Source of the DNA: a virus
Virus record (IMG/VR): IMGVR_UViG_3300014911_000001
Span: 111,797-175,796 of that record
Strand: one strand, 5' to 3'
DNA length: 64,000 nt
In this document: one piece after another, positions 12,500-35,878 of the stretch
Numbering within the stretch: the first letter of the stretch is position 1
How the letters are laid out: each line of letters begins with the position of its first letter
The notes under the pieces: model-generated
The model's database searches: none
What the model was told of the DNA's origin: nothing
The model's input: the letters and a program-made list of their open reading frames with translations, nothing else
Made by a program: the position numbers and the translations under genes

Positions 12500-12876
12500 T
12501 GAATCTTATACGTATTAAGTATGAGGATACCACCTATGAATTTAATTATCCCACCCTATTTGATTACTACTTGTTTATTGATGGTCAAAAAGTTCGGGTA
12601 TTTGATCGCCTCGCATTAAAGGATTATAGTATTCCATCAATTAAGAAGGTGCGCATTATAACCATCCTCTTTCGTCACTTCCCCGCCTTTGCTACAGAGG
12701 ATGAGGTATTTTCCAATATACCGGATGCTGGTGGTTTGATTTATTTAATTCGGGCATTTGGATATAAACCTCACGAATTATTGCAGTTAAATCCTTATGA
12801 GCTTGATTTTGCGGTAAGGTTGGCGGAATATATAAACAATCCAAAACTAGAGAATGACAGTAGTCCGCAGGAATAA
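12499..12876 (+). CDS. Probable second tail assembly chaperone
   Basis: TAATG coupling; C-terminal AFGYKPHELLQLNPYEL resembles the G-x2-P-x-E-x3-L motif of tail chaperones; directly before the tape measure. Confidence 0.5.
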   Translation: MNLIRIKYEDTTYEFNYPTLFDYYLFIDGQKVRVFDRLALKDYSIPSIKKVRIITILFRHFPAFATEDEVFSNIPDAGGLIYLIRAFGYKPHELLQLNPYELDFAVRLAEYINNPKLENDSSPQE

Positions 12877-15800
12877 GCCCTTTCTTTTCCAGAGTGATTT
12901 AGCACGCATACGCACAGATGAGACATTGCGCAGCCGTTATGGGTGGGGTCGTACACTTTTGCGTTTTGGAGTGGCGATGGCTTCCTTTGCTGTTTTGTCT
13001 TATGGTGCGCGTTCCTTATCGCGTGCATGGCGTGCATTGGCCACATCTGGAGCATTATCACGGAAGTTTGTTGAAGGCGTTAAGGTAGTAAAGAAGTTAG
13101 GGCTTGAGCAGGGTAACTTACTTGATGTAATATTATCAGTATCTAGGCGTGCGCGTCGAGTTGCTTATAAATATGTTAAGTGGTCGCAAGATTATAGGGA
13201 TGCGTCGCGGCTTCTGCATTTTGGTAAGGCATTAAGGAAAATATGGAGCGGTGGTAAAGCATCATTAAAGGGTTTTAGGAAGGCGCGTGAGGCTTATCGA
13301 CGGGTTGGATTACGAGGTGCATTGTTTGGTGCCTTTTTGCGTGGTGCAGAAAGAGGTGTTGGATTTGCGATTTTATCTTCGGCTGCTGATGCATTAACAC
13401 ATTCATTTATAACACCTGCGGATAGAGAGAAGACAAGAAAGTATGGTCCTGTTGCTCGTGTGAAGCGTTTTTTCACTGATGCTGTCCTATTTAGTGGATT
13501 ACAAGGACTTTGGGGTGTATCAAAAGTTGCCTTTCCTACCTATATACATAGGTATAGCCCACAAATACAGCGTTTTCTTACCCGCATTGGAGCGCCTACT
13601 TATGTGGCTAAGTTTTATGGATGGAGGCGTCGCTTCTATGATTATCTAATTCGTGCTATAGAATATAAGCAGAAGTTTACTCAGAAATTGCAAGGTGCTA
13701 ATATATGGCAGCACATAAAGCAGCAGATGAAGGAGCATCCCGGGTTAGGTGCTATTGCAACCTATTTGCGGGAGCAGATAAGGGAAGCTCATCTACATGC
13801 TAAGAAATCGTTTAGGAGGCCGGGTGGATTTCCACCAAGGAGTGGTTATGATACGGTTATAACAATGATGAATTATGCGAAAGAGGTTAATGTTAAGGAT
13901 CCTAAGTTTGCAGCGGAGATTGCAGCTCAAGCTGTTGGACGTTATAAAGGTGTGAGTAAGTGGCGGCGGCTTCTTAATATCGAACGTGAAAGGTTGACCA
14001 AGAAGCAGGCTGTTGCTTTCAGGGAGATGCTTGAGAAAATGGGGTTTAGCAAGTCATGGATCGAGACATTAAAGGGGGAGGAACGCAAGTTTTATGAGAA
14101 TCTGTATTACCGTGTGATGAGGGGACCATTGTTCCATGGTCCCGGATGGTTTGAAGTAGCCGGGCAAAAGTTTTCACAGTATGAGACGCGTTATTTTGTA
14201 AAAGGAATTCTCCAGAATCTATATGCTGGTCGATGGAGGGGGGTTACACGCATTTTGGCTTCTGCGGCGGGCTTAGACCTCTATGCCAACCGCAGACCTG
14301 TATTTATCTTCCATCCTACCATGGATATTCCGATGAGCGTTCCTATACCGACTGATGAGGGTGTTCGTATGCTACGCTTGGTAACCGAACGTGGTAATGA
14401 TCGGGTTCGTCATGGGATTGTATTCTTACAGAATAAATTGTACAGATTATCGCCGACAGAGGAGGGTGGTGAATATTTTGTGGATAGGGTTATAGAGAAT
14501 GTTAAATTATATGAGAGCCCGGCTTATAACATATTAAAGAGGGAGTTAACGCAGTATTATATCAAGCAGAGGCGGCGCACGGATGAGATAGGTTTGCGTC
14601 CACCCGGTGAATATGTTAGGGATATAATCAGGAAATTATCGCGGGGTGTTGATAAGGCTAGCTTAGAGGAATTGGTTAATGTATATAAGTCAACCCGTTC
14701 GACGGCCCATATTATCTTTGGTAAATTGTTATCAAAGAAGGAGGTCCGTGAGGTTGCATCGCAGATCTTGGAGCAATTAGGCGCGAGTAGAGCGCAAAGG
14801 ATCTTGCAGATGGATGAGGCATCATTAATCAGGGAACTTGAGAAGGTTATAGAAAAGCCTGCACAGGTAACGGAGCGGCTTCGTAACAAGTTTATCTATC
14901 TTATAAATGCATCACGGAGTAGGATGAGGACTATGAAGGATCTTTTGAATCAGGAGTTTATAGGTTCTGGATATGCAGAAGCACGGGCTAGGCATGTTAT
15001 TGAGTCGTTCTTAATTGAGCAGCATTTGACACCAGAAATAAGGGCGAAATTCTTTAGCAGGCTTGCTGAGGAGCAGTTGATCGGGAAGTGGATAAGGAAG
15101 CCGGCTTATACACATTTCTTCAAAGCATTAGCAGAGCTAGCACCTGTTGAGATGGATGCAGAAGCTCTAAGGTCTACTATAAAGGGCGCGCTTAATGATA
15201 TTGTAGTCGGTTGGAAAAAATTACCTACAGTTGATCCATTTAGGCCGATATCTGCCTTATTCCAGTATGGTGGATTGGGTATCCACAGGTTATTTGAACC
15301 TACCATAGAAGGTATACGGGTAATGGGTACTACAGTACCATTTACTGTTGTTAGAGAAGGTATGAGTCCATTTAAACGGTATACGGTAACAAGTTTATTG
15401 TTTTCCCATCACTTACGGCGCATATGGGGATTTATGGATTATGTAAGCAAAGCTCCTCGCAAGTTTCCTATTATCAGGCATTTATTAAGGCGATTAGACC
15501 CTAGATTGGCTGATACGGCGCATATCTTTCCATTTGAGACTAATACTACTGGTTGGACGGCTTCAGATATGATAAAGAATTTATGGAAGCCGGCGGCTAC
15601 ATTATTGGCATTAGGTGTAGGATATAAGGCTGTTGATACATTCTTTGATGAAAGTGGTTTATTTGAAGGGACTGCATTAGGAGAGGGGTTGACACCTGCT
15701 ATACTGGATGCATATGCATTAGGTCGTCTTTCCTTGGCAAGAGTATTGGATATTGCAGGTGTAACTGATGCAGCGCGGTATTTAGAGGGATTAATGCCGG

Positions 15801-18685
15801 GGTCTACGACATGGTTGCCGGGTGCACTATATGGCGTATGGAAGTTTGCACCTGCGGGGCCGGCGGCTTCCGCTATGGGTGCATTAATAATGGGTGCTGT
15901 TAATAAAATGTTAGCGCCATTTTTGCCTGATTTAACAAAGAGTTATGATCAACTGAAAAGGATATATAGAGGTGAGGAGTATGTGCCTGTAAGGAGAGCA
16001 AGGTATTGGCCTCTATCTTTAACTCCTTGGGAGGGTTATGATATTGAATATTGGCGGCCTTCTCTATGGTTCATTGTAAGACAGCAGGCAAAATACACTC
16101 CTGATATAAGTGGTAGCAAGATACAGTCCTTGTTACAGGGTGACTGGTTGTTTGGTTATAATCCATTGCGTATGTTTGATCCATATGCTAAGGAAAGACA
16201 GCATTATTTCTCTAGGCCGGCGCCTCTCACACAGTTGCCATTTTGGGATGTGCCAGTTATAGGGCCGTTTTTAGCTTTAACTGTTGGGCAGGTATTGAAA
16301 CCACAGCAGATGATGCATACAGCCTTTTTGAAGGAGATGTATCCCGGTGAGTATGGTGTGCCGAAGGGTGAAGTTGTCACACCGGAGGATTTATCTAATC
16401 CTGATCAATATGTATCAGCTATGCAATCCAATCAAGCTGTTGCAATGTTAATGAATAGATATGCGGGGCGGGCTTACAGGCATGTCACAGGAGATATGCT
16501 TAATAGAGGTATAACAGAAACTCTGTATAGATCGATGGAGATGGCGGGCTTAAGAGGTTACCTAACATCGTTATTATTAGGAACACAGACACCGCTTAAT
16601 TTCAGTAGGTATCTAGAAATGTATGGTGAAAACGAAGGGTTTTTATCTGAGTACTGGAACATGGAGCTTAATGATGTAGCTGGTGGATTGTCTGAGATGA
16701 TAAGAAGATTCCGGCCTGACAAGCGGATAAATACAGTTAACCCTATCCCCAACCTTATGGCACAATTTTTACCCGAAGGAGAGTATGGTGGTAGCGATTT
16801 TCTACATGGTGATCCTTATACTAAAATTCCTATGGGTTTCATAAGATTGCCAGGGACTGGATATGAAGCAACACATAATGTAATGCATACATTTCCTGCA
16901 TCGTTAAGAATGTTGGGTAAGACAGTAACAGAGATAAGGGACATTATGGCCGGGTGGGAGGATATTATTGAGGAGAGAACGGAACGGGAGCTAAATCAAT
17001 TTTATGATGCCAAAAAGATTGTGCAGGGATTGCTTGAGATATCAGGACAGAATGTTGAGATGGATGTGCAGATTTACGATCCATATAACAACATTGTTGG
17101 TACCGTTGATGCAGTTGTGAGGAGAGGGCGATTTAGGCAACCTATTATTATACGTCCTGTTAGTGAGGAGGAATTTAGGGAGCTTGTTGCCCCGAAGGAG
17201 GAGCATGCGAGTCAGGTAAATTTTGCTATGAAGTTTTTTGGTGCGAAGACGGGTAAATTGATTTATGTGAATGTAAGATCGCCTGAACAGATTAAGACAT
17301 ATACCATCTTTTTTGATCCATCAAGGTTAAGAGAGGATATAAGTGCATTAAAGAGGGCGAGGGAACAGGCTGGTGAGTTGTTAAGGGCAGGAGCTGTTTT
17401 TGATTATGGTCGTAGTTATAGCTGGTTTGATAGATATAGAATTTTAGCTGATGTTGCTCCTTTATCTGATCAATATAAGCAGGCGCGTGCTATTGTATTG
17501 AAGCAATTGCAACAGGGATTTTTGCCACCTGAGTTATGGGATGAGGTGCATGAGATTGAGCGAAGGCGGCGGCTTCAGCTTTTAAAATATCCTATGTATG
17601 TGCGTCGTTTTACTGGTGAAAATGTTGTTGAAACGGTGCAGAAGCTTTTGCATCCGCCTAGGCTTTCCGGCAGGGAGTTATCGCTATCTTTGAATCCATA
17701 TTTAAGGTCGCCTGATGAATACAGTTTACCAGAAAGGATCGTAGGTAGTATCTGGGAGACATTTACACATTTACCAACACCTTATAATAGGAAATTCTTT
17801 TTCCAGTATTCACCGTCAGAGATTTATAAGTATTTCCATTTATATGATCGGGAGTATAAAGCATGGACGCGGCCTATTGAGGATTGGGTTAAGCCACAGG
17901 TTAGGACGATGCTTGCTTCACAAGGCGTAATGGAGGGCGCGGCTTCATGGGCTACAGCAGGTTATGCTGTTGGTAGGTTATACGGCGGGCTTATAGGTGC
18001 AGTGGCTGGATCCATATATGGGTTGATACCTAAGCCGCCGATGATACCGGAGGATGTGGAGAAGGCGCGCGAGGCTTATTCGTATTATGATAAATTGAAA
18101 TATGCACGTAACATGCAGTTTTATGTTATGACAGGTAATAGAATATATGAGGAGCGTGCTGAGCGGACCTTATTGGGTGCGAAGAACTTACGTGATTATG
18201 TAAGAGCATTACCACGTTTTGAGCGCCCATTTACTGTAGCGTTTATGAACATAACTGATGAGAGTGAAAGAGAAAGGATAAGGCAGATTATATCACCTGA
18301 GGCGCGTCGTGCCTTGGATGCAGCATGGGCGAGACGTGAATTGCGGTATAGTGTTGAAGAAGGTGGTTATGAAGAGGTACCGAGAACACCAGCTAATTGG
18401 GCTGGTTGGATTTTTGCGATACCTGATGAGGATATTTATGTGAAGGAGCTTGAGCAGCGGGGTGTTGATCCTCTAGATTTTGGTTATGGTTATCATGGTC
18501 AGGCAGCTGCTGTACGCCGTCTATCTGAAGATTTTGCTATACCTGATCAAACTGTAGACGTCGTAAATATTATGGATGTACAGGAAACGATAGTAAGGTC
18601 ATTGCAGGCGCAGGGTATTAATGCTTCTGTATCCATCATGGGATTTGATAATAGTAGAAGAGTTGATGTTGTTATTTATAAATAA
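12854..18685 (+). CDS. Tape-measure-like / ejected virion protein with a degenerate PD-(D/E)XK (Cas4/RecB-like) domain
   Basis: 1943 aa, helical, very basic N-half, several Gly/Ala-rich hydrophobic segments, tape-measure position; nuclease-like segment at about 17050-17340. Confidence 0.65.
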   Translation: MTVVRRNKPFLFQSDLARIRTDETLRSRYGWGRTLLRFGVAMASFAVLSYGARSLSRAWRALATSGALSRKFVEGVKVVKKLGLEQGNLLDVILSVSRRARRVAYKYVKWSQDYRDASRLLHFGKALRKIWSGGKASLKGFRKAREAYRRVGLRGALFGAFLRGAERGVGFAILSSAADALTHSFITPADREKTRKYGPVARVKRFFTDAVLFSGLQGLWGVSKVAFPTYIHRYSPQIQRFLTRIGAPTYVAKFYGWRRRFYDYLIRAIEYKQKFTQKLQGANIWQHIKQQMKEHPGLGAIATYLREQIREAHLHAKKSFRRPGGFPPRSGYDTVITMMNYAKEVNVKDPKFAAEIAAQAVGRYKGVSKWRRLLNIERERLTKKQAVAFREMLEKMGFSKSWIETLKGEERKFYENLYYRVMRGPLFHGPGWFEVAGQKFSQYETRYFVKGILQNLYAGRWRGVTRILASAAGLDLYANRRPVFIFHPTMDIPMSVPIPTDEGVRMLRLVTERGNDRVRHGIVFLQNKLYRLSPTEEGGEYFVDRVIENVKLYESPAYNILKRELTQYYIKQRRRTDEIGLRPPGEYVRDIIRKLSRGVDKASLEELVNVYKSTRSTAHIIFGKLLSKKEVREVASQILEQLGASRAQRILQMDEASLIRELEKVIEKPAQVTERLRNKFIYLINASRSRMRTMKDLLNQEFIGSGYAEARARHVIESFLIEQHLTPEIRAKFFSRLAEEQLIGKWIRKPAYTHFFKALAELAPVEMDAEALRSTIKGALNDIVVGWKKLPTVDPFRPISALFQYGGLGIHRLFEPTIEGIRVMGTTVPFTVVREGMSPFKRYTVTSLLFSHHLRRIWGFMDYVSKAPRKFPIIRHLLRRLDPRLADTAHIFPFETNTTGWTASDMIKNLWKPAATLLALGVGYKAVDTFFDESGLFEGTALGEGLTPAILDAYALGRLSLARVLDIAGVTDAARYLEGLMPGSTTWLPGALYGVWKFAPAGPAASAMGALIMGAVNKMLAPFLPDLTKSYDQLKRIYRGEEYVPVRRARYWPLSLTPWEGYDIEYWRPSLWFIVRQQAKYTPDISGSKIQSLLQGDWLFGYNPLRMFDPYAKERQHYFSRPAPLTQLPFWDVPVIGPFLALTVGQVLKPQQMMHTAFLKEMYPGEYGVPKGEVVTPEDLSNPDQYVSAMQSNQAVAMLMNRYAGRAYRHVTGDMLNRGITETLYRSMEMAGLRGYLTSLLLGTQTPLNFSRYLEMYGENEGFLSEYWNMELNDVAGGLSEMIRRFRPDKRINTVNPIPNLMAQFLPEGEYGGSDFLHGDPYTKIPMGFIRLPGTGYEATHNVMHTFPASLRMLGKTVTEIRDIMAGWEDIIEERTERELNQFYDAKKIVQGLLEISGQNVEMDVQIYDPYNNIVGTVDAVVRRGRFRQPIIIRPVSEEEFRELVAPKEEHASQVNFAMKFFGAKTGKLIYVNVRSPEQIKTYTIFFDPSRLREDISALKRAREQAGELLRAGAVFDYGRSYSWFDRYRILADVAPLSDQYKQARAIVLKQLQQGFLPPELWDEVHEIERRRRLQLLKYPMYVRRFTGENVVETVQKLLHPPRLSGRELSLSLNPYLRSPDEYSLPERIVGSIWETFTHLPTPYNRKFFFQYSPSEIYKYFHLYDREYKAWTRPIEDWVKPQVRTMLASQGVMEGAASWATAGYAVGRLYGGLIGAVAGSIYGLIPKPPMIPEDVEKAREAYSYYDKLKYARNMQFYVMTGNRIYEERAERTLLGAKNLRDYVRALPRFERPFTVAFMNITDESERERIRQIISPEARRALDAAWARRELRYSVEEGGYEEVPRTPANWAGWIFAIPDEDIYVKELEQRGVDPLDFGYGYHGQAAAVRRLSEDFAIPDQTVDVVNIMDVQETIVRSLQAQGINASVSIMGFDNSRRVDVVIYK

Positions 18686-21600
18686 TGGCAGTTATAAGGA
18701 AAAAACATACATATTTGCGTACTTTTACACGCAGGAAGGAGCGGGAGAAGGGCAACCGTTTTGCGAAGTTTGGACTGGGGGTTGCTGCTCTTGTGCCCAT
18801 TGTTTATTTGGTCAGGGGGCGCGGCTTCGAAAGGCTACATGATTTTCTTAAGACCTTTGCTGAGGCTTCATATAAGAAAGAGGCGCGGGCTTCAGAAGCA
18901 TCTCTATGGGCATATGGGCCTCTTGATAGGATAAAAAAGGCATTTATGGATAATCCATTTTTATCGGTACTGGGTACTGTTACCAAAAAGGAAGCACAAG
19001 GAAGGTCTGTAAGGGAGGTATTGAATAAATTAAAGGATATTGTCGAGCTCTTGCGTGAATATTATTCGGTAGCTGAAATAAGAAAATTATTTAATGAGGA
19101 TATTATTCCTTATGCTGATAAAGCGTCTAAGCTTATTGTTGAGGAGGAAAAGCAATTAGTATATAAGTATCAGTTAATGTTTGAGCGGGCGCTTAAAATT
19201 CTCACGAGGAAGATTAATGAAAAAGGGTGGCTTCCGCGAGACCCATTTCATTTTCGTCTCCTAAGTAAGTATTTACCACATAGCTACAAATTTGGATTGT
19301 TTTATGGTACGATGCCGAGTTTTTCGGCGCCTCTATTTGAGATTTCTACAGCTAGTGAGCAGTTTGCACAGATTTTCCAAAGGGAGATAAAGAATCTATC
19401 AGAAAGTGAGGTTTTACTTGGTCAACATGTTGAGCAGGTTATAAAAGATTATGTAAAAAAGCATGTAGTTGTAAATCCTGAGTGGGAGCTTGCTGCTAGT
19501 GAGGTGTTTAAGCATCTATCAGCTGAGGAGCATTTACAGGTCCGAAATCTTGTTACAAGAATTACAGAGCAGGTAGCTAAGTGGTTGCATCGTCATGCCG
19601 GTATTGATGCAACAGATTTGCCTGATGTGCATGTTGTTATAAAGGCGCAGCGTTATTATGATGTTCCTATGCTAGTTGCTCAGCTGTCGGTTGTTGATCT
19701 GCGTGGGGTCAAAAGGAGTATAGAGATCAAGCTTGGTGTTCCCCAGAAAAGTGGATTGATGGCAGCTATAGGAAATTATCCAACAGCAAATGTCAGATTT
19801 GCTCAAGGTAACAGGGTAAGGTCGATCTTTTCCTTGAAGCTGGAGCGCTTAGGCGAGATGTTTGAGCATGCCTTGAACGATTTATACGAAGGGAAGTCAG
19901 AGGATTATGTTACCAGACGCATTCATAGAATCATTGGACGATATGATTTATATGGAACTGGGCGTAATGATAAAGCATTCCAGTTGGTGCATTCCATTGT
20001 TGATAAGGACTTTAAGGATTATGCGGCTTATAATGCTAAAAAGAGATTTTTGAAGCGCGCTGCTGAGTTGGTGCTTGGTGTGAGAAAAGGCAAGTATCGG
20101 GTGTTTATGGATGCTGAGTGGGTTATGGCTGGTATATCGAGTACTGGGACTCAATATGCAGTGACTGAATCCCGCCGGCGCTTGATATGGAGTTTTGCCA
20201 TACAAGTTTTTGATGATCTTGGTAATGAGGTTGATAAGTTGGTTGTATTTATAGATCCGAAGACGATAAGCGATGAGTTCTTCATGTCGCAGGTGCGTCG
20301 TTTTGGATTATCAAAGGCAGCTGCTGAGGAGGCATTAAAAGCGGTTAGAGGTCGTGTTGCGATGCCTGCTGGATATGTCAGAGTTGATAGTGAGATGGAA
20401 GCCAGCCGGCTTATATGCAAGAAAATAAAAGACATAATTAATAAATATGGTAAGGATGATCTACTTGTTATGGGTAAGAACTTCTGGAGCTCAGAGGTTG
20501 CATTGTTGGAGCGGGCCTTTAAAGCTGACAGTAATATATTAAATTATATCAAAAGAAAGTTAGTTGATATAGAGGATATATATAGGTTGGTATATGGTGC
20601 TAAGGCTATTAACAGGTCATTAAGTGTTGAGGCTATTCTCGATTATGTAAAGGTATCGGATGAAGGATCGAAGCTATTGGGCCGGCTTCTTAATTATGAA
20701 CCGAGGGTTGAGGTCCAAGCGTTTGCTAATTTAGTTAGGTCGCTACATTTTGGTGAGCAAGATAACAGGATTGCATACATCCTATCAAAAATTGCGGAGA
20801 GCATGGTTAATAATGATCCTGAGTTGCGTGAGAGAGTACTAAGGATTTATGATATTGTAGCGAAGTCACAGGGAGCTGTTTTATCATTTACAACGCAGCA
20901 GGAGTTCATGCAGCGGGCTTACAATTATGTAAAGGAGCAATTGAAATCTGTTGGTGTTGGTTCGCCTAATGCTGCGCGTAAGTGGCGTTTTGAATATCCG
21001 TTTAATCCGGCTGATTGGGTTCCGCTATTTGTTCCCACCTTGGAGAAACAGAGGTATCAGTTAGGCCGCGGCTTACCTTTATCGGAGGCGTCGAAAAGAT
21101 TGCTTGAAACTCTTAAGAAGGAATATGCTAGGCGCGTATTAGGGTTGGGTGAGGCTGATATCAATTATCTAGGACCGGCGCTTATTTCTATGCCATTTAA
21201 GAGATTCCTAGAACAGCAGATGTTATATAATGTCCGTAGTGTATTTACGATACCTGTCTTCTCAACATTTTTCCCATTTGCTGGCGAAGGACATATGTTT
21301 ATACACAGGAGACTTACTGAGCTATCGACAGTAGTGCAGGAGGTGATTAGTCAGAAAATTCCGATAAGTAGGTTGGAGAATATGGATGCTCGTATGCAGT
21401 TGTGGGTGAAGCTTTTTGAATCTGCCATGGAGGCTGTTAAGACATCTCCGAAGTTGGGTGAGTTAATTAAAAGCAAATTTAATAATGATATTGTTAAGTT
21501 TTTGAGAGCTGTAGATTTGTCGATTGTTATTGGTAGATATCGTGGATGGATAAAGGATTCTGAGCGGTTGGCTAATGTTTTAGTGCAGTTGTTTCCGGGG

Positions 21601-24600
21601 TTTCCTATCAAGCGTTTTGTTGGTCATGCTATTGGTAGGAATCTAAGAGGTCTTACTATAAAGCAGTATATGGCACTGCGCCGCGGTGTGAGTGCACCAA
21701 AAATAAATTTGGGGGATATATGGAAGGAGATATTTAGCGACAAAGCAGCTGCTCATCCATTATACGACATGTTGAGTAATGATAATATGTTGAAACTTGG
21801 ATTGATGGATGAGTCTGCTCAGGCAGGTTATGCACAATGTGCATTAATAAGGGAAATCTTTAATAGATTGGTAGAATCGGGGCTTCATCTTACCAACCCA
21901 GAGCAGTACATCAAGTATGGTACTTTCGTAATGACGGACCGGCTTCAGCTTGGTGATAAGGTTGTAAAAATTGGTTATAATGGTAAATTGGTTTTTAATA
22001 AAATAATTACATCTTATGATCTTACAGGTGTACCTTCATTAGATTTTTCACTTACCTATGAGATAGTTTTGCCAACTCCCTTAAAGTGGGTTACATATTA
22101 TCAAAAAGGTATGGGGACAGCACAGCGCTGGTCCTTAAGCCAATTTCCATATTATCTTATAGAACCGGCACGTTTTATGGAGCGTGGTGAATTGGGCATC
22201 TTTATAGAGACAGAGATGACCCGGCTAAAGGAGGCATTAATTAAAAAATATGGTGTGCGGGAAGCCGCCAATGTTATGTCAAAGATGACAAAGGACCTCA
22301 ATGATTATATGAATAGAGTGGTTAATTACGCTATTAAGGAGCACGGGCTTCCCATCAAACTTACCAGTCCGTTGTTTATATTCAATCCCAAAATGATGGC
22401 AATAGAGGGCAATTATGATTTGTTTAACACATTGACAACAGAACAAAAGGGATTATTGTGGACAGTATTTTTGGAGGGTTTACCTGAGAAGGTGGGAAAG
22501 ATTGGTGGATATCCAAGCTTGTTTGATTATCTTGAGGCTAAATTCAAGGAGCATGGTATTGTTGTAACTCCCCAAGAAAGGAGGATATTCAGAAGATATG
22601 TACAGAAACAATATGCGTTGTATAAGAACAAAAAGATAAGCGAAAAGGAATTTTTTGAAACAGTCTTGCTGAAGGACATAGCTGATGAGAGGATACGAAA
22701 CTGGTTTAGCAGATTATATTATGGAGATGATAGGGAGCAGCTGGCGCGCTTATTCGATATATATCAGATAAAATTAGGTAAAAGGGTTGTTGAGCTTATT
22801 GGTTTGGGCCGTCATAGCCCCTTTGGGTTGGGTGATACGGCTCTAACTAGTACCTACAAAAGTTTTGTTCGTATACCAATGCAGATGTATTGGGATATCC
22901 ATCGCTGGCCTCATTTAGAGGGTATGGCTCAATTTATTGATGCCTTCCAAGCTCAGAATCTACCTATTTATGAGACACTTCTTAAGATGGCTGATATGCT
23001 AAAAATGAGTCAGTCATCTATTGATGAGTTGGTGAAGGCAGGGGGTATCTATGCTGTACCGGTGCGGCGCTTCTTTGACTTTGTGCGCAAACATATGAAT
23101 CTTCTTAGGTCAATAAGGGAGGATATATATGTACCAGAAAAGATATTAGAGGAGGCTCATGGTGATATGGTTCGTGCTGTCCAAATGATGCTTGATCTGG
23201 GTGTATCGTTAACGGATTTTAAGGAGAATGCTATAAAGTTTGAAGGCGCGCAGGTCCGTGCGCAGGTTGCCAAGGAAGTGCAGGATTTCCTCAGACAGAT
23301 ATTTGAGGAGGCGCAAGGGAAGCGCGTTGTTATCGATGTAGGCAGGGCAATGTCTGTTTCCTATAAGAACCTTGAGTCGATGATTGGTCAGAATGATGCT
23401 ATTATTAGGGATCTTATAAAATATTTAGAGAGAATGGGTTACAACAAGCTGAAGTATATACCATTGGGGACAAGGGAATTTTGGGATCTGTCATTCCACC
23501 AGATTGGTAGAGACCAAGTTATTGTTGAGCCTCAGGTTAAGAAGTTGCTGCAATTAATGGCATCGATTGCATCAATTAAGGGTAAGGTGCAAGCAACTGG
23601 TGTGCCATCGGCGCAGGTTAAATTTGAAGAGAGAAATGTATTTTATAAGCAGTTTGTTAATTATCTTGGTTCTATAGCTAGTAGCTTTATAGGCCGGCAA
23701 TCCTTATGGGCACGCACTGCTGTAACACATCTTCCTGGTGTTGAGGGTGTTGGACTTCCGTCCTTCTTGCTTTTTAATAAGTCGCGGCTTCTTGACACAG
23801 TTGTATGGGAGCCATTTACGACCTATGTTGATGCTTCTGTTATTGAGAATCTCAGAGGTATGTTGGAAGCCGCCGGCTTCTCCAAGGAATTTATCGATGC
23901 TTTTTACAAGGGCAGTCCTAATGTAGCATTTTTAGGTATGCCCGGACGTATGCCATTCCACCCCGGTATGGGATTGATAGGATTTATAAAGAGTTTAACC
24001 AAGCAGCAGAAGAAACATGTTTCATCTGTAAGCGATGCCGTTAAAATATATATGGATCCTTTATTGATAACGAAGGTTCTATTAGGTGACTGGGATACAG
24101 ATAGATTGATGGCGTTACTAACAATGACATCTCCGAAGGGTGCTGAGGATATAACAAGGATATGGAAGTGGGTCTATGGTTTATCAGATCAGGATGTTGC
24201 ATTTCTTATGTCGTATGGTAAGTTTAGAGCTGGTGACAGGAAGGCTATAGGTGAATTGCAGACATTTTTTACGTCTGTTTTTGAGAAGATGACAAAAGAG
24301 CAGAAGGAGGCATATATACAGAGCAAAGAGTTTGAGGATATGCTCCACAAAAGATTATCAGCCATTGTTGCAAGAATGAAGGAAGGATATTTGAGCTGGT
24401 TTGGTAAGTCTGAGGCAGAAGAGTTAAGCGAGCGGGTCGAGTTTTTAGTGACAGGTGATGTGACGAAGATACCGACAACGGAGGGTAAGGTTATTTATTT
24501 ACCGACTATATTAGCGCAGATGCGTGGTTATACGATGAAGATTGAAAAAATGTGGCCATTTATACAGGAGGCCAAGGAAATTGCGAGGAAGGAAGGAATT

Positions 24601-25746
24601 CCATTCAAGGAGGCATTAGCTAAGCATATGGCTGACATTTTTGCTAATAGGGAGCTTAGGAATGTACTGGGTACATCGATGGCTGGTAAAGCTGATGTGA
24701 TAAGAACAGGGTATGCATTAGCATTGCAGCATATATATAAATTAAGAGCTGAAGGGCTTTCATATCAGGATATAAGTAAGATCATGGGATTAAGCATTCC
24801 AGAAGCATTTGGTCAAGTATTTGATAAATGGATTGCGGCGGGTTCTGAAAGACAGAAGATGATTCTTACATTTGAAAGGGAAATACTCGATAAGGTATTA
24901 AAGATGAAGCGTGGTGGTTCTCCAGAGGCGATGGCTGAAGCAATAAATAATCTTGCTAATGAGTTGCTGGAGTATAGTAAGGTTTCATCATCTGTTGCGA
25001 AGAAAGGACATGAGTTAATAGATAAATTTGTTGCAGAAATTGATTGGGAGAAGATGGGATTGAAGCCGCGTGATGCTTTATACATGATGGGGTGGTTATT
25101 AAGAAACACGCAATGGACTATCCGTAATTCCAGTTATCTTGTTACGAGACAATCGATAAATAGAGGTCTTATTGAAGCATATGCGATGTTTGCATCCCGT
25201 TTGCTGAGTCAACCGACGGGTCCTACGGTAAGCCCGACATTGTTAGATGCATTGTCGGGTGAGGTATTAAGGGGCATGGCAAGGGAGCCGAAGCCATTGA
25301 ATGAATTACTTGGCGAGCAAACAGCAAATATGAGGTTTAGGGAGGCATTGGCGGGCTTCCTTACAAAAACATTTGAGAATTTATCTAAATCAAGAAAACA
25401 TAGATTGCTATTAGCAGGTGCATTGGCTGGGATAGCGGGATATATATTAAGCGGGCCGAAATTAAGAGGAGATATATTTTCATTTGGTATCGATATAGGC
25501 ACAGTGCATGGATTGGAGCCGAGCTTCTTTGATGGTAGATGGACATACCCTGAGTTGCCCCGAGGGGAGGATATAAGGGGTTTGGAGAATCCATATCATA
25601 AAAGGAAAATTTATATTCTACGTAATATAAGGCGCAGGAACCCTGCATTATTTAATGAGTTAAGGAGGCGCGGTATAATTCAAGAGTGGGAAATGTCGGC
25701 GCCTTATGATTACCCACGCAGAGAAAGGAAGGTGATCTATGTATGA
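18685..25746 (+). CDS. Giant virion protein: DEDDh exonuclease domain plus putative single-chain two-barrel RNA polymerase
   Basis: Exonuclease motifs VFMDAEW (D476/E478), MGKNFWSSE (E604), LHFGEQD (H688/D693); polymerase-like motifs LKWVTYYQKG (K1134/K1141), GRMP (R1755), GDWDTD (D1802/D1804/D1806). Confidence 0.65.
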   Translation: MAVIRKKHTYLRTFTRRKEREKGNRFAKFGLGVAALVPIVYLVRGRGFERLHDFLKTFAEASYKKEARASEASLWAYGPLDRIKKAFMDNPFLSVLGTVTKKEAQGRSVREVLNKLKDIVELLREYYSVAEIRKLFNEDIIPYADKASKLIVEEEKQLVYKYQLMFERALKILTRKINEKGWLPRDPFHFRLLSKYLPHSYKFGLFYGTMPSFSAPLFEISTASEQFAQIFQREIKNLSESEVLLGQHVEQVIKDYVKKHVVVNPEWELAASEVFKHLSAEEHLQVRNLVTRITEQVAKWLHRHAGIDATDLPDVHVVIKAQRYYDVPMLVAQLSVVDLRGVKRSIEIKLGVPQKSGLMAAIGNYPTANVRFAQGNRVRSIFSLKLERLGEMFEHALNDLYEGKSEDYVTRRIHRIIGRYDLYGTGRNDKAFQLVHSIVDKDFKDYAAYNAKKRFLKRAAELVLGVRKGKYRVFMDAEWVMAGISSTGTQYAVTESRRRLIWSFAIQVFDDLGNEVDKLVVFIDPKTISDEFFMSQVRRFGLSKAAAEEALKAVRGRVAMPAGYVRVDSEMEASRLICKKIKDIINKYGKDDLLVMGKNFWSSEVALLERAFKADSNILNYIKRKLVDIEDIYRLVYGAKAINRSLSVEAILDYVKVSDEGSKLLGRLLNYEPRVEVQAFANLVRSLHFGEQDNRIAYILSKIAESMVNNDPELRERVLRIYDIVAKSQGAVLSFTTQQEFMQRAYNYVKEQLKSVGVGSPNAARKWRFEYPFNPADWVPLFVPTLEKQRYQLGRGLPLSEASKRLLETLKKEYARRVLGLGEADINYLGPALISMPFKRFLEQQMLYNVRSVFTIPVFSTFFPFAGEGHMFIHRRLTELSTVVQEVISQKIPISRLENMDARMQLWVKLFESAMEAVKTSPKLGELIKSKFNNDIVKFLRAVDLSIVIGRYRGWIKDSERLANVLVQLFPGFPIKRFVGHAIGRNLRGLTIKQYMALRRGVSAPKINLGDIWKEIFSDKAAAHPLYDMLSNDNMLKLGLMDESAQAGYAQCALIREIFNRLVESGLHLTNPEQYIKYGTFVMTDRLQLGDKVVKIGYNGKLVFNKIITSYDLTGVPSLDFSLTYEIVLPTPLKWVTYYQKGMGTAQRWSLSQFPYYLIEPARFMERGELGIFIETEMTRLKEALIKKYGVREAANVMSKMTKDLNDYMNRVVNYAIKEHGLPIKLTSPLFIFNPKMMAIEGNYDLFNTLTTEQKGLLWTVFLEGLPEKVGKIGGYPSLFDYLEAKFKEHGIVVTPQERRIFRRYVQKQYALYKNKKISEKEFFETVLLKDIADERIRNWFSRLYYGDDREQLARLFDIYQIKLGKRVVELIGLGRHSPFGLGDTALTSTYKSFVRIPMQMYWDIHRWPHLEGMAQFIDAFQAQNLPIYETLLKMADMLKMSQSSIDELVKAGGIYAVPVRRFFDFVRKHMNLLRSIREDIYVPEKILEEAHGDMVRAVQMMLDLGVSLTDFKENAIKFEGAQVRAQVAKEVQDFLRQIFEEAQGKRVVIDVGRAMSVSYKNLESMIGQNDAIIRDLIKYLERMGYNKLKYIPLGTREFWDLSFHQIGRDQVIVEPQVKKLLQLMASIASIKGKVQATGVPSAQVKFEERNVFYKQFVNYLGSIASSFIGRQSLWARTAVTHLPGVEGVGLPSFLLFNKSRLLDTVVWEPFTTYVDASVIENLRGMLEAAGFSKEFIDAFYKGSPNVAFLGMPGRMPFHPGMGLIGFIKSLTKQQKKHVSSVSDAVKIYMDPLLITKVLLGDWDTDRLMALLTMTSPKGAEDITRIWKWVYGLSDQDVAFLMSYGKFRAGDRKAIGELQTFFTSVFEKMTKEQKEAYIQSKEFEDMLHKRLSAIVARMKEGYLSWFGKSEAEELSERVEFLVTGDVTKIPTTEGKVIYLPTILAQMRGYTMKIEKMWPFIQEAKEIARKEGIPFKEALAKHMADIFANRELRNVLGTSMAGKADVIRTGYALALQHIYKLRAEGLSYQDISKIMGLSIPEAFGQVFDKWIAAGSERQKMILTFEREILDKVLKMKRGGSPEAMAEAINNLANELLEYSKVSSSVAKKGHELIDKFVAEIDWEKMGLKPRDALYMMGWLLRNTQWTIRNSSYLVTRQSINRGLIEAYAMFASRLLSQPTGPTVSPTLLDALSGEVLRGMAREPKPLNELLGEQTANMRFREALAGFLTKTFENLSKSRKHRLLLAGALAGIAGYILSGPKLRGDIFSFGIDIGTVHGLEPSFFDGRWTYPELPRGEDIRGLENPYHKRKIYILRNIRRRNPALFNELRRRGIIQEWEMSAPYDYPRRERKVIYV

Positions 25747-25910
25747 AAATTATAGTTAGAGTACCACCAAATGCAGATATTGTTCGTGTTGAAGCGGCAA
25801 TACGTAATGCTTTGATGGCGTATGATTTAGATGTACGGTCGATACAAGTGGTAACAACAGCTTTCGGACAGGAGGAGTATGCCAGAGGACTCGAAAAAAC
25901 CGAGGCTTGA
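25743..25910 (+). CDS. Small hypothetical protein (55 aa), absent from the ORF track
   Basis: ATG overlaps the upstream TGA (ATGA); reads MKIIVRVPPNADIVRVEAAIRNALMAYDLDVRSIQVVTTAFGQEEYARGLEKTEA* and fills the apparent intergenic gap. Confidence 0.55.
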   Translation: MKIIVRVPPNADIVRVEAAIRNALMAYDLDVRSIQVVTTAFGQEEYARGLEKTEA

Positions 25911-28900
25911 TTACAGGACAGCTATTATAGGTACTGTTCCTGTGATTGTTACAGATTTTAGAGTTGTTGAGAATTTTTCCTACCAGCAGATACAGACGCT
26001 ACGTATGGATAATAATGTTATTTACCAGATACCCGGAAGGAATTTGTATGTTATTATTGGATTAGAATTTCCTGATGGTTATTCCATTAATACAGGACTG
26101 CGTGAGCTCCATGCCATGATGTTTCTTGCTCCCATTGTACCTATTTATAGTCCGTGGCTTAATGACATGGTTATTGCATCGTTTGATCAATATAGAGGGC
26201 TTGCTGAATTAATGGGTGTTAATACAGATGTAAACATTTATGCATTGCGTCGTTTAACGATGAGATCTGTTGAGTCGCCTTATGCTATTGGTGTTGAGAT
26301 GGAGATTGCTCCTATGGATTTAGATGCGGCGCGGCTTAAACCCCAATTCCTTGTGGATGAAGAGGCAGCGCGGGCTAAATCTGAATTTATAGCGAGGTTG
26401 TTTGAGTTATATGAAACGATGAAGAGAAGTGAGGACCCGCTGGCTTATTTGGATGGCTTTACATCTATCTACAATGATTACAAGAGGGCTGTTGCTAATA
26501 AGGTTGTCGACTTCCTATGGCAGTCAGAATTATTTAAAAGGTGGATAAGCATAATGTATCCTGAGGGTGATAAGTCACTTTTACCAGTTCAAGGGGTGCG
26601 GCTTAAGCGGCAGCTTGGCATATGGCGGCAGACACCGTTTGCTAATATTGTTATTCATTATCTTCATATGGCTGATGATATCGTATCGTTGCGAGATGAA
26701 ATCCATAAGTATGTTTCAGATGTGGCTAGTAGTACAGCGAAAATGATCCGTGATTATGTAGCTGATTACGAACAAATTCAGCAGGTTGGCGCGCCTCGAC
26801 GATTTTTTCAAGTATTACAGACATTATATAATAGCATTAAAGGTGGCATACGCACCCGTGTTGATAGTTCATTAATGGGTACTATAGCGTTTGGTAATCA
26901 GATAAGAGAGATGTTACTTGAGGTTGCGTTACGCATGGATAATGGGCAGAGGGGTAAGTTTACTAACTATGTGCAAAGGATTCTATCTCTGACGGCGGGG
27001 CCTAATCTAGTAGTCCCTGAGATGATGATGGAGGGTGAGTCAGCTATTGTTACCATGTCTGATTTTCTTACTAGATTTTTTGCGGAATTAGGTAAGAAGT
27101 TAGATACGGATTCATACAAAATTTTTGTTGATTTATTTGCTGATGTTATGTCTGAACGTATTGCGTATTGGGAGTTGTTTTCAAAGGTGATGAAATATGA
27201 GACATTTGATTTTGGTAAGTATCGTGCTACTCCAACCAGATGGGAATATACCGTAACTAATAAATTCGTACCTCTGAGGATTGGTGATGCAGTAGCTCCC
27301 TTGTTGCAACATCTTGGTACTGACAGTCCTATATTTAGGGTGCAATATGCATGTGGTGATGGTCTGGCCATAAGGCAGCTAAAACAGTTAAGAGATGATG
27401 TTGATAAGGCTGTGCAACAGATAAATGAAATAGGGTCGTATTTCCCTTGGATTACGAGATATATAGAGCCTATAATATTATCCTCAACGGACGGCTTAAT
27501 TGAATTTCTGGGCATGCAGCATGCGGTTTTAGATTCAGTAAGTATTAATCCGATGGAAGAAGCCGCGATGGTTGCTGAGGCTACATGTACATTTGTTGCC
27601 TCTGATATAACGATTTTTGATTACGAGCAGTTTGAGTTTGCCGATACTGTTGGTGCCAATAATTTATCATGTCTATTATTATTCTATGCATTGCGTAAAT
27701 GGTACCAGGAAATTTTTGGCAAAGACCTTCCTCCGAGTGGTACTGTTGCAGAGACGGTGCAGCCATTAAAGGAAGGTGAAGATATTTCGAAGCTAAGGAT
27801 TCCGTTTAAATTGTTTGATGTTATGGATTCACAGAATGTAACGAAGCGTGCATTTCAGTATGCGATGACATTATCCAAAGCTGAGAATCAGAATTATTAT
27901 AACTTCACTATCTATAATTCAGATAAAAAGGCTGTATATGCATTAAATGAGGGTGTGGTTACTAACGTAACTAATAATCTGGTTGATGGTTATATAGTTC
28001 GTGTGAAAAACGGTGATTTTGTAACGGAGTATAGGAATCTGGGGAAATTGGCAGAGGATATTAAGCCGGGCGAAAAGGTGTTGGGTGGACAATATTTAGG
28101 GGAGGCGCGCTTCTTTGCTAGTGGAACATATCCAACCGAAGTACAGGAAAAAGAAGTTAAAATGCTACCTAACCTATTAGGATTAGGGGTGCCTGAGGTT
28201 GTTCAAGAATACAAGAAGAAAGTAAAAACATCTGGTCCTGCGCCTTATGGGGTGTTTGTATTATTTATGTATAAAAATATTCCATTGGACCTAGAAATTT
28301 ATAAAGGTAAGGAGGTTTTTGAAAAAGCAGCTAATATATCTGCGCCCACAGATATATATGCATATTTTTGGACCCATACTAAGGATGATAAAATAACATG
28401 GGCTGGGCATACCTATGATGTGAAAAATAATCCTTATGTCCAAGGATATGTAAATAGTGTCTTAGGTGGGATACCTATTTTAGAATCAATTTCGAATCGT
28501 GTTTTTGATGAGAAGACATTTTTTGATGTCCTTATTCGATTACTGATGGAGAAATGTATGACATGTGTATCGTCATTTGATATTGCTGGCTTGGAGCAGA
28601 AGCTTGCAAATGAATTGGGTATGGAGCCGGCTTCTGCAACTGATAAAGCTGTTCCAACACAGGAGGAATATGTGCCCGTTCTTGGCCGTCCATACTTTAC
28701 CCACCCATCATTGGAAGAGATGAAACTACCAGAGCCACAATTACCTCCTAAGGTAACTCCGGCACCAGAGGAAGGAAAAATGGAAGTACCTGAGGAGAAA
28801 GTAGAGAAACCGCAGCTTTCTGCACCAAAAGAATTACCTGAGGAGGCCCCGCCAGTAGAGGTGCCGCCTAGTGAACCACCAATGATAGAAGAAGGTGAAA

Positions 28901-31275: not shown

Positions 31276-34200
31276 TGCCAGAGGATAGAACAAATATTAT
31301 CTCCGATCCAAGCTCTAAGCCTACTGGAGATGGGAAGACTAAAGATAAGGGTTATGGGATGTTGCCTCTAACAGCTAATTTGTTTTTAGATGATATGCTT
31401 CAATTTACGAATGAAGCATTTCCTCTTGCATCTGCGATGTCTATATTGAGTGGTGATTATCATTTTATTGTGCGTAATTGGACGACGGCTTACCCAGATA
31501 GGTATATACCTGACAGGATTTTAAATAAGAGGGGGTCGACGCCTCTATTCTACTATGATAGTGATATAGGAATTAACAATAAAGTTATACGTGCTCTTGT
31601 TAATGAGACTCGGTATCAGGCTAATATGATTCTTAATCAGTTGGCGGCGTTTACTAATATGCCGGAGGATCTTATTGAATCTATTAAGCAACAATTAAAG
31701 AAATTTTATGGACCTGAGGCCGCCAATAAGTTTGAAAATGAAATTAAAAAACATACTTACGGGAAGAAGTTAGATTTAAAGGAATACAGGAAATTTCTTG
31801 AACAATTTAAAGAGCTTTATTTAGATGATTCGCGGCTTCAGTACTTGCTTGACTCATCGGATAAGCAGACAAGCAAGTTGTTAGGTGGCTTGGATGCGCG
31901 GCTTGGTCTATTATCATGGTTAAATGTCCGCAATTACGCGCGCTTATACATTAAGCTTTTGGAGCTCAAGGAGATATTGGAGCAGATTGGAAAGGGAGAG
32001 GGAGCCGTGCCTCCTGATGCTGATGCGCTTAATCTTATAAAGGCGATGATAATAGCTAAGTACAAGGTTGATAATCCCAAGGCATCAGAAGCAGATATTT
32101 CAGCTAAGGCTGCTGAGATAGATGCTGCTTTTGGTGATGAAGCAAAGTTAGCACAAGTGTTGACAAAATATGGTAAGGAGCTCGCTGACATATATAGTTC
32201 ATATGATAAATTAAGTAAGTTTGTCGATAAGCTTATTAATGTTTGGACAAATGATCCATTTTTTAGCGGGTTGTTATCGGCGTATAGGGCAGAGAATAGA
32301 AGTATTACTGAAATTTTATGGTTGGCAAGGGATATTGCCCATGTTGATGCCGTGTTTGCGGCTAAAAATGTAGAAGATGCTGTGAATACCTATTTCCAGC
32401 ATTCCCTTATGGTGGGTCCTAAAGAATTTGAAACACAGTTAGATATTTTGTACCGCATTCTGGTTACATATCCTCTAGAGGTTGCCTATAAAGTGAACCG
32501 AATTTATCCAACATTCAGGATTTTCCTTGTTCATCCGGGTACGGGGCTTATTTACTCATTCAGAGACTTTTATTCACCAAAGGCTGTTGAGAGTATTGAT
32601 ATTTATAGAGACAAGTTAGGCACGGCAGATGTATGTCGTATAACGGTTTCCAATCGGGGTGGTCAGTTTGTAACAGATCTCCCAGCATTTCTTGAGCCAC
32701 ATGATATTATTGATGCAGGGGGTGCAAGGACACCTCTTATGTTGAAGCCCGGCATGTATCTTATTGTAAAATTAGGTTATGCTAATTTGGAGAATGATCT
32801 TAGGACTAGGTTTATAGGGCGCATAACAGATGTACAAATGCAGGAAGGGCGCATTGTTGTTATGGCACAAGGTCTTGGTACTCAGTTGTTGATGGTACCC
32901 GGGCAGGATGAGGATCATAAGGGTGAGATTAAAGTCAAAGATGGCGGAATATTAAGGTTATTGGGGTTTGGTTCTATTATAAGTAGTTATGGGGCGCTTA
33001 TTGCTCATTTATTATTGCAGACGCGCGGGCTTGGTGATCTAGGTCGCCGTGTGAGTTTATTCCGTAGGTGGGAGCTAGGGTATCGTGGAGGTATATATAA
33101 GACACATCGCGGGCCTATCATGTTTAGTTTGTCCAATGCATTAAATAGACTTCTTCATAATACGGCGCATCTTTTACCGTTTTTTGCTAAAAAAATAGTA
33201 GGTGTTTTTAAACATTCACCATTATATCATTTTCTGCCTGCGAAAACGCGTGAGAATATAGATAAAATGATTGATGCCTTGCCTTTATTGCCAACTATAA
33301 TGGATGCATACCGTCATTATCGAGATGTAACACATAATATTGGTGCGCTTATGGAGAATATTTATATTGATGCTGGTGTTGGTGGGGCTAGTACATATAC
33401 AGGCGCGGGTAAGTTTGCGTGGGATATATGGGCTCAATACTTGAGAAGTATATTTGGTGGTATTGGACGTGGGCGTTCAGCTAAAGACATTCAATCGCAG
33501 CAGAGACCTATTAATAGTGAGGTGGTTCCATGGGGTATTGAGTACTATACTCGTGCAAAGTCCCTATATGATTGCTTGAAGGAAGTAGCATGGTTCTTCC
33601 CCGGATATATTTTATATACACCGTTTTATAATGAGGATTTTGTGTATAGTGCGCGGGCCACTATATTTATAGGTCAGAAGACATTTTATTACAGATACAG
33701 AGATGATTTATATTCAAGGGTTGAGGATGGTCCTGTTATCAAGAAAGCATTATTGGAAATCATTGATGATGCGATACAGAATATAGGTAAATTAAAGAAA
33801 GTTGACTGGGTTTATCGTTATGGGCAATTGTTTTATCTATTTCCTGATATAAATTCCATCTTGGGCAAGTACAGCTCTTCACGTATGAGGTCATTGCCGA
33901 CAACACAGCCAGGGAAACTTCCCGGTTATTTAGATCTAGTTTCTGGCGGTCGTGCACATGCTGTTCCACAAACGGTAACAGAAAGTAAAGGTGATATAAC
34001 CGGGGAGGAGTTTAGGGTTCAATTGCAGGATCTTAGGACTCTTATCGAAACAGAGGGTGAATCATTACATAAAACGGAGAAGAACATCTTCCACTTAAAG
34101 TTCTTGTTTAGACCTGAAAATTATTCTCCCGATGTTTATAACTATGTATTATCGATGAAGCCGGAGGTTGCGTTGCATATGGTATCAGCGCGCCCGCTTC

Positions 34201-35288: not shown

Positions 35289-35878
35289 TGGTTGTCGATT
35301 ATGTAAATAAGTTAGAGTTTTATGATGCTGATCGGATGCTCGGGCTCTTTAGGGTAAGGCAAGGGCTTTATGTTGGTTATGTGATCAATTTACGCCTTGG
35401 TCAAAAGTTTGATGATGCTGATTTATTTTTATGGTTTCATTCGGAGAATCCCAGTCCTTATGATGGTAATAAACCTGTTGATGAGACAGATCATTTAGAT
35501 CCCCCTCATTACATAAGTTTACTTTTACCTGTTTTTACTCATGGTATAAAGGGGACGACTGTTTCACCATTAGAGGCATCGATTGTTAGTGCGCCTTCTG
35601 CATATGGTTCAAAGGATAGTGCATCAGTAACGGATGGTGAGGGCCACGGCTTATTCGTAAGTAATAATACAGTAACAATCAATGCAGAAGATGCTGGCAT
35701 TACACTTGGGCGTGACGGTATTTATATAAAAGGTAGAGTATTGTTTGAGGAGCCATCCAATACTTATGGATGGTTCAGGAAAAACCCTATGGCAATAATA
35801 CCTTCTACTGTTGTTACTCCGTTTCCTGATTTATCGATTGATGTTGAGATGTTAAGCAAGCTAATACCGGGCTTATAA
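35288..35878 (+). CDS. Putative baseplate central spike (gpV/gp5-like)
   Basis: Lies between hub and gp25; short beta-strand repeats HGLFVSNNTVTINAEDAGITLGRDGIYIKG. Confidence 0.55.
   Translation: MVVDYVNKLEFYDADRMLGLFRVRQGLYVGYVINLRLGQKFDDADLFLWFHSENPSPYDGNKPVDETDHLDPPHYISLLLPVFTHGIKGTTVSPLEASIVSAPSAYGSKDSASVTDGEGHGLFVSNNTVTINAEDAGITLGRDGIYIKGRVLFEEPSNTYGWFRKNPMAIIPSTVVTPFPDLSIDVEMLSKLIPGL

Follow-up and report, generated by a model that had tools for sequence, protein, structure and literature searches.

The window analysed in this study, the final 64 kb of a 175,796-bp IMG/VR virus record (IMGVR_UViG_3300014911_000001), carries in the tail module of an uncultured, contractile-tailed phage of hydrothermal vents a giant gene, P0001, for which an earlier note on the same DNA had proposed a highly divergent, virion-packaged single-chain two-barrel RNA polymerase (RNAP). 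The open reading frame (ORF) and the four motifs on which that proposal was built were recovered in the order claimed, at positions (in nucleotides, nt, and amino acids, aa) that were exact or at most 3 nt off:

18685-25746, plus strand: whole gene P0001, 2353 aa, ATG start, the sole long frame there, product of roughly 260 kDa
aa 865-876 of P0001: FAGEGHMFIHRR, including E868
22081-22110 (aa 1133-1142), plus strand: LKWVTYYQKG, with K1134 and K1141, an insertion specific in the alignment to P0001 and its close relative P0002
23944-23955 (aa 1754-1757), plus strand: GRMP, with R1755
24079-24102 (aa 1799-1806), plus strand: LLGDWDTD, with D1802, D1804 and D1806

Taken without homologs, these motifs are weak evidence. 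A DxDxD pattern is expected 0.21 times in a protein of the length and composition of P0001 and is present in 17% of shuffled sequences; 2.7% of the shuffles have, in addition to it, an R-x-P situated 20-80 aa upstream. The R-x-P and DxDxD pair is raised above chance by its conservation in distant homologs. With aa 800-1950 of P0001 as the query, an exhaustive search of 1.84 billion representatives by HMMER recovered three proteins, namely P0002, from the same phage lineage (91% identity), P0003, of 2268 aa (23% identity, E=5e-17), and P0004, a 671-aa fragment (29% identity, E=9e-9). The latter is the C-terminal part of a split copy, and the preceding ORF of 999 aa, P0005, aligns with the middle of P0001.

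In the segment surrounding the Asp triad, 24 of 163 positions (15%) are invariant among the four sequences P0001-P0004, which represent three lineages at 22-29% identity, and R1755, P1757, D1802, D1804 and D1806 are all among them. P0003 reads VRYP...GDYDGD, with a canonical loop, and P0004 reads GRNPTL...GDFDAD, the Asp-loop variants of the family being DWDTD, DYDGD and DFDAD. Since the R-x-P and the Asp triad are invariant, the beta'-like half of the proposed polymerase passes the test of conservation in homologs, whereas neither Lys of the pair assigned by the earlier note to a beta-like barrel is conserved. The elements of this half are as follows:

23686-24129, plus strand: segment resembling the beta' double-psi beta-barrel (DPBB-A-like), aa 1668-1815, placed by the alignments and by the hhalign register against beta'
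23947-23955, plus strand: R1755-M-P1757, the invariant R-x-P
24088-24102, plus strand: D1802-W-D1804-T-D1806, presumed Mg-binding triad, all three Asp invariant
24184-24195, plus strand: conserved motif YG.SD(Q/E)D, 32 aa past the triad (PSQD of Escherichia coli beta' lies at +42)

Other invariant positions in the beta'-like segment are G1670 (followed by K or R), P1684-G1685, L1691-P1692-S1693, Y1789, D1791-P1792-L1793 and G1801. When residues 333-500 of E. coli beta', taken from the genome record, were read in the same way, LLGKR, GP, CGLP, a helical insert, NRAPTLH, HPL and NADFDGD were found in this order. The order shared between the family and the bacterial subunit is G-K/R, P-G, G-L-P, a helical insert, R-x-P, (H/D)-P-L and (G/A)-D-aromatic-D-x-D, and the distance from G-K to the triad is also similar (~128 aa in E. 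coli beta' vs 132 in P0001). Alignment of the family profile to beta' with hhalign fell in the same register as this reading of the motifs, over 58 columns with a single beta' sequence and over 89 with a 31-sequence profile.

Spacings around the triad, counted from its first Asp, were compared with those in two known virion RNAPs. P23-45 gp96 is a Thermus phage tape measure whose first 1200 aa form a two-barrel virion RNAP, with gp64 as its non-virion RNAP partner (Chaban et al. 2024, PMC10770324), and phi14:2 gp66 is a virion RNAP of 2180 aa with DFDID at positions 1361-1365 (Drobysheva et al., bioRxiv 10.1101/2020.03.07.982082). The R-x-P lies at -38 in gp96, -40 in gp66, -35 in beta', -39 in P0003 and P0004, and -47 in P0001, where a 9-aa insertion, present in P0001 and P0002 and not in P0003 or P0004, separates it from the triad. 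Downstream of the triad, two further conserved stretches were noticed:

24640-24759, plus strand: bridge-helix-like segment, aa about 1986-2025, with F1986, N1993, V1994 and G2001 invariant (MAGKADVIRTGY)
24883-24912, plus strand: trigger-loop-like motif I2067-L-D2069-K-V-L2072-K2073-M-K2075-R2076, invariant, at +267

The bridge helix is marked by AGQ at +186 in gp96 and AGGK at about +180 in gp66, to be compared with MAGK at +199 in P0001, and the start of the trigger loop by TDRKKR at +263 in gp96 and VDNAK at about +250 in gp66, to be compared with the invariant h-h-D-K-x-L-K-x-K-R of P0001 at +267. The P0001 motifs may correspond to the bridge helix and trigger loop of RNAP, in positions like those in gp96 and gp66 and with sequences that agree in part. 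Within the same region, a weak Sigma70_r4_2 Pfam match at aa 2017-2038 (18.5 bits against a cut-off of 25.7) was rejected; what lies here, after the bridge-helix-like motif and before the trigger-loop-like one, is probably a hairpin of helices.

The second barrel proved harder to place. The site proposed for it in the earlier note, K1134/K1141, did not stand, as P0003 and P0005 lack the LKWVTYYQKG insertion and the site lies ~660 aa before the Asp triad, and E868 held only in part, aligning with Glu in some homologs and with Gln in others. The behaviour of the Lys pair, and of E868 too, is that of chance matches. In published structure-based alignments, the Lys-Gly strand precedes the triad by 178 aa in gp64, 232 in gp96, ~264 in QDE-1 and ~334 in gp66, which puts the second barrel of known single-chain enzymes 178-334 aa ahead of the triad. 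At such a distance, the alignment of the P0001 family contains another candidate:

23314-23343, plus strand: candidate Lys-Gly strand of the second barrel (DPBB-B), QGKRVVIDVG, aa 1544-1553, with D1551 and G1553 invariant, at -257 to the triad

QGKRVVIDVG appears to be a better second-barrel candidate than LKWVTYYQKG. Because this correspondence and those of the bridge-helix-like and trigger-loop-like motifs were spotted by eye and after the fact, all three are taken as supporting arguments only.

The P0001 family is tiny, comprising near-identical copies and two distant lineages, P0003 and P0004/P0005. Near-identical copies of P0001 were found in two further assemblies (L002 and L005). The alignment of P0001 with P0003 spans aa 286-900 and 1336-2348, and P0003 lies on a 112-kb contig with the same gene order, consisting of a tube-like gene, two small genes, a gene of 1975 aa and P0003 itself. 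The split homolog is located on a 13-kb metagenome contig (L004:6349-11514) as ORFs of 999 and 671 aa that are ~150 nt apart, an arrangement for which a frameshift, a genuine split of the gene or an artefact of assembly could be responsible; tube and chaperone-like genes are on the opposite strand of this contig, unlike in the window and in L003. Word-index searches for homologs returned P0002 or nothing, scanning viral, metagenome and genome contigs for patterns yielded nothing beyond near-identical copies of P0001, and a degenerate DNA scan for relatives returned only the same phage. A match in a Bryobacterales metagenome-assembled genome (L009) was discarded as spurious, since it sits in a 367-aa ORF. 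With P0001 itself as the query, nothing meaningful was obtained in Pfam, PHROG and NCBIfam scans, no RNAP was ranked by phmmer among PDB sequences, no match was found by tblastn against 50,697 phage records, and ESM Atlas look-ups gave no usable match.

Outside the putative polymerase core, P0001 displays several other features:

18757-18813, plus strand: N-terminal hydrophobic segment, aa 25-43, from a Kyte-Doolittle scan, weaker in P0003
20107-20784, plus strand: DEDDh-exonuclease-like region, with DxE at ~aa 484-486, GKNF..(E/D) at ~597-605 and Hx4D at 688-693 in the alignment
21385-21984, plus strand: hypervariable patch, aa about 900-1100, 64-73% identical to P0002 vs 94-100% elsewhere
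25405-25461, plus strand: C-terminal hydrophobic segment, aa 2241-2259, from the same scan, present in all three lineages
25468-25560, plus strand: strongly conserved C-terminal motif GD.FS.G..(I/L)G.V.G..PS..D..W..PELP, aa 2262-2292 of the alignment

The hypervariable patch may result from diversifying selection or recombination. The exonuclease-like motifs (aa ~475-700) are shared by the lineages and follow one another as in DEDDh 3'-5' exonucleases, with H688 and D693 invariant and a second motif that reads G-K-N-F/Y-x3-4-(D/E). Pfam RNase_T found no match in sub-sequences of P0001 or in the six frames of the genome, and the putative DEDDh 3'-5' exonuclease-like region is regarded as a motif-level lead only.

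The setting of P0001 in the tail module of a contractile-tailed phage, as claimed in the earlier note, was confirmed, the gene lying between sheath/tube and baseplate genes on one strand:

4147-7431, plus strand: tail sheath gene, 1094 aa, matching PHROG sheath families and, by tblastn, the sheaths of Bacillus phage 0305phi8-36 and Moorella phage MTATph1
7759-11794, plus strand: three paralogous genes in the tail-tube position after the sheath, matching phrog_9206, labelled 'major head protein'
12854-18685, plus strand: giant gene upstream of P0001, 1943 aa, a homolog of CDS0026 in MTATph1
25879-35288, plus strand: two downstream giant genes, 1798 aa and 1337 aa, the former with weak Peptidase_M23 and amidase matches
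35878-37448, plus strand: baseplate genes, matching phrog_975 and phrog_6 (baseplate wedge, E=6e-30)

The 'major head protein' label of phrog_9206 looks wrong, because the position after the sheath, where MTATph1 bears the same label, fits a tail tube better; the three paralogs are more likely tail-tube proteins. Two small genes separate them from the 1943-aa gene, which is possibly the tape measure. That role, or that of a tail lysin, could also belong to either of the downstream giants; the 1337-aa product contains a lysin-like region and two adjacent hydrophobic segments (aa 1193-1234). The 1943-aa protein shares several conserved blocks with the 1949-aa product of CDS0026 (E about 1e-16), which distantly links the vent phage to the cultured phage MTATph1, whose host is a thermophile and whose genome measures 176.6 kb. 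MTATph1 was found to contain neither a homolog of P0001 nor a tail giant bearing DxDxD. Since MTATph1 has the upstream giant and no P0001 homolog, P0001 appears to be an accessory of the lineage rather than a universal tail part. The ATG of P0001 overlaps the TAA of the upstream gene (TAATG) and, unlike the next gene, has no Shine-Dalgarno sequence, suggesting that translation of P0001 is coupled to that of the upstream tail-module gene.

A search of the long intergenic regions for recurring words and for 10-mers in common turned up only Shine-Dalgarno sequences, AT-rich words and the palindrome GAAGCCGCGGCTTC. Across the 176-kb genome there are 9 copies of the palindrome and 11 of its 12-nt core, most of them within coding sequence; sites of the palindrome or its core in the window are at 63415-63428 and 45910-45921. 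At least half of the words sampled from positions 22000-26000 of the window were present in DNA runs labelled as hydrothermal vent, marine sediment or marine metagenome, and their presence in runs of at least 6 studies indicates that the phage lineage is widespread in vent and marine habitats.

A smaller gene elsewhere in the genome is also relevant to the interpretation:

L006:2462-4951 (equivalent to G000:C1:68458-70950, outside the window), minus strand: P0006, 830 aa, with GLKG at aa 190-193, KSP at 406-408 and DADGD at 440-444

P0006 matches the gp96 core in the correct register by BLASTP (E=0.009) and has no match in Pfam, NCBIfam, PDB or phage databases. On this motif-level evidence, P0006 is a candidate single-chain RNAP of the gp64/YonO type.

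The C-terminal half of P0001 (~aa 1540-2080) can be read, with a probability of about 0.65, as an extremely diverged single-chain two-barrel RNAP core. From the observed gene, the conservation of its motifs and its gene context, a fold, an activity, a packaging route and a cascade may be proposed. D1802, D1804 and D1806 would hold the catalytic Mg, with R1755-x-P1757 in the same beta'-like barrel, which would be followed by the bridge-helix-like segment (~1986-2025) and then by the trigger-loop-like motif (2067-2076). P0001 would be expressed late, along with the tail proteins and in coupling with the upstream giant gene, and then incorporated into the particle, either in the tail or among the head contents. 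An anchor in the tail or in a membrane may be provided by the hydrophobic segment and the tail motif that are conserved near its C-terminus. Upon infection, P0001 would be ejected with the DNA and would transcribe the first phage genes, probably including that of P0006, whose product would then take over. Such a P0001/P0006 cascade would follow the scheme shown for Thermus phage P23-45 (PMC10770324).

Several results weigh against a polymerase. The hhalign comparison of the family profile with beta' is not significant (P=0.057-0.059), no Pfam match of P0001 to the beta' barrel family (PF00623) appears even at E<=10, and searches of PDB sequences with the family profile rank no RNAP. When the profile was compared with gp96, gp64, gp66 and P0006, the Asp-loop match, irrelevant segments or nothing were obtained. 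The fourth position of the P0001 loop is Thr (DWDTD) and not Gly; K1134 and K1141 are not conserved; and the alternative strand at aa 1544-1553 reads G-K rather than K-G in P0001, with variable placement of the Lys in the family and poor preservation in P0005. The bridge-helix and trigger-loop matches were made by eye and post hoc, and no conserved promoter-like motif was found in intergenic regions. No double-psi barrel was seen, both AlphaFold2 models being unusable: that of P0001 aa 800-1960, from a five-row alignment, had a mean predicted local distance difference test score (pLDDT) of 38.2, and that of the DPBB-A segment of P0003, from a four-row alignment, a mean of 49.8, with the barrel part below 50. 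Furthermore, the statistics of conservation are thin, because the family contains about three independent lineages only. Nevertheless, the validated virion enzymes scored only marginally against the same beta' profile in hhalign (P=0.01 over 32 columns for gp96 and P=0.024 over 21 columns for gp66), so twilight-zone similarity is to be expected for virion RNAPs; the gp96 barrel has no Pfam match either, and the alignment of the P0001 family to beta' is longer than those of gp96 and gp66.

As the main alternative, P0001 could lack polymerase activity and serve the tail as a structural component or in ejection (as tape measure, tail-lumen protein or membrane channel), the acidic loop being a structural metal site or part of another enzyme, such as a nuclease or a phosphoesterase. 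Its place in the tail module beside other giants would agree with this, as would the N- and C-terminal hydrophobic segments and the conserved C-terminal motif, which are frequent in ejection and tape-measure proteins, the largely helical prediction in the low-confidence AlphaFold2 models, and the lack of significant similarity to any polymerase. This explanation is nonetheless unlikely, as it does not account for the invariance of R-x-P, (H/D)-P-L, G-D-aromatic-D-x-D, G-K and G-L-P in the order and spacing of beta', or for the canonical GDYDGD in the homolog P0003. EF-hand-type loops follow DxDxDG and metallophosphatases the spacing GDxxDR, but the P0001 loop lacks the Gly of the former and does not fit the latter. 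A general tail role is also at odds with MTATph1, which shares the upstream giant but not P0001.

The Thr in P0001 and P0002 where nearly all active enzymes have Gly, together with the 9-aa insertion between R-x-P and triad that is absent from P0003 and P0004, could point to a descendant of two-barrel polymerases that is catalytically dead and plays a structural or DNA-binding role. This we consider highly unlikely, because independent assemblies of the lineage (P0002, L002 and L005) keep all three Asp together with the invariant residues beside them, P0001 and P0002 are 94-98% identical across the triad segment, and an Ile in the corresponding place (DFDID) does not prevent activity of the crAss-like gp66 (bioRxiv 10.1101/2020.03.07.982082). 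The idea that the motifs arose by chance in so long a protein and mean nothing draws on the shuffling frequencies given above and on the chance-like Lys pair and E868, but is hardly credible in view of the five residues (R1755, P1757 and the three Asp) that are invariant at 22-29% identity, an outcome of ~0.15^5 if the positions were independent.

Among these explanations, the polymerase reading is preferred, and P0001 would probably represent a new virion RNAP family encoded in tail modules, one that is unrelated in sequence to the P23-45 enzyme and varies its strategy. The chances appear roughly even for the fuller proposal of an undescribed family of giant tail-module virion RNAPs in contractile-tailed phages of vents, combining a DWDTD loop, a possible N-terminal 3'-5' exonuclease-like domain, coupling to a tail giant, a cascade with P0006 and early transcription without the host RNAP. 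If P0001 is such an enzyme, virion-delivered RNAPs of cellular type would be a recurring solution hidden in tail modules, not an oddity confined to one Thermus siphovirus, having arisen or diverged past recognition in contractile-tailed phages as well. A new and very distant branch within the superfamily of two-barrel polymerases, with a catalytic loop of the non-glycine kind, would help to define the minimal conserved core, and would raise the question of how an enzyme of this mass passes through a tail. It would also offer a testable case of host-independent early transcription in a vent phage. From a methodological point of view, such enzymes can be spotted through motifs conserved in a handful of distant homologs when Pfam, PHROG and PDB searches and AlphaFold all fail.

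Among known systems, bacterial RNAP beta' (PF00623) resembles P0001 in the order and spacing of G-K, P-G, G-L-P, R-x-P-T-L, (H/D)-P-L and D-aromatic-D-x-D, but P0001 is a single chain and not a subunit of a multisubunit enzyme. With YonO and QDE-1, P0001 would share the barrel order, B and then A, if aa 1544-1553 is the DPBB-B strand, and the GDYDGD of P0003 matches what appears to be the catalytic loop of QDE-1. Enzymes of this type are ~800-1400 aa long, not virion-associated and not encoded in tail modules.

The similarities to phi14:2 gp66 are closer. Both proteins are single chains of similar size encoded in a structural module beside giant virion proteins, with the core in the second half and a non-Gly residue at the fourth loop position (DFDID in gp66), and in gp66 the R-x-P 40 aa upstream of the triad and the AGGK and VDNAK motifs are at similar distances. 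However, the phage that encodes gp66 is podovirus-like, sequence similarity between gp66 and P0001 is not detectable, and gp66 has its second barrel ~334 aa upstream of the triad vs -257 for the P0001 candidate. To our knowledge, no companion phage RNAP has been described for gp66.

P23-45 gp96 provides the closest parallel in strategy, although by sequence comparison P0001 is not a member of the gp96 family. An RNAP fused to the N-terminus of a tape measure was not found, as the candidate core is at ~aa 1540-2080 of P0001 and a separate gene of 1943 aa precedes it, and homology searches between P0001 and gp96 with hhalign and BLASTP gave an 11-residue Asp-loop match or nothing. P0001 is placed outside the family because of this lack of homology, the different domain order and the contractile tail. 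In gp96 the RNAP occupies the N-terminal 1200 of 5002 aa of the tape measure and has the loop DFDGD, whereas the candidate core of P0001 is in the C-terminal half of a separate 2353-aa protein with DWDTD; and the tail of P23-45 is non-contractile and very long, whereas the window phage has a sheath. Nevertheless, both are giant tail-module proteins with DxDxD and no other detectable RNAP similarity, and the spacings from R-x-P to triad and from triad to bridge-helix and trigger-loop motifs are similar. Indeed, gp96 and gp66 are giant virion proteins that were first recognised by the DxDxD motif alone (PMC10770324; bioRxiv 10.1101/2020.03.07.982082). Both genomes contain a second, smaller single-chain RNAP or a candidate for one (P0006 in the window phage), and both phages come from hot habitats, the window stretch occurring in hydrothermal-vent metagenomes. 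If P0001 is a polymerase, the P23-45 strategy would extend to a lineage unrelated in sequence, with another tail type and another domain order.

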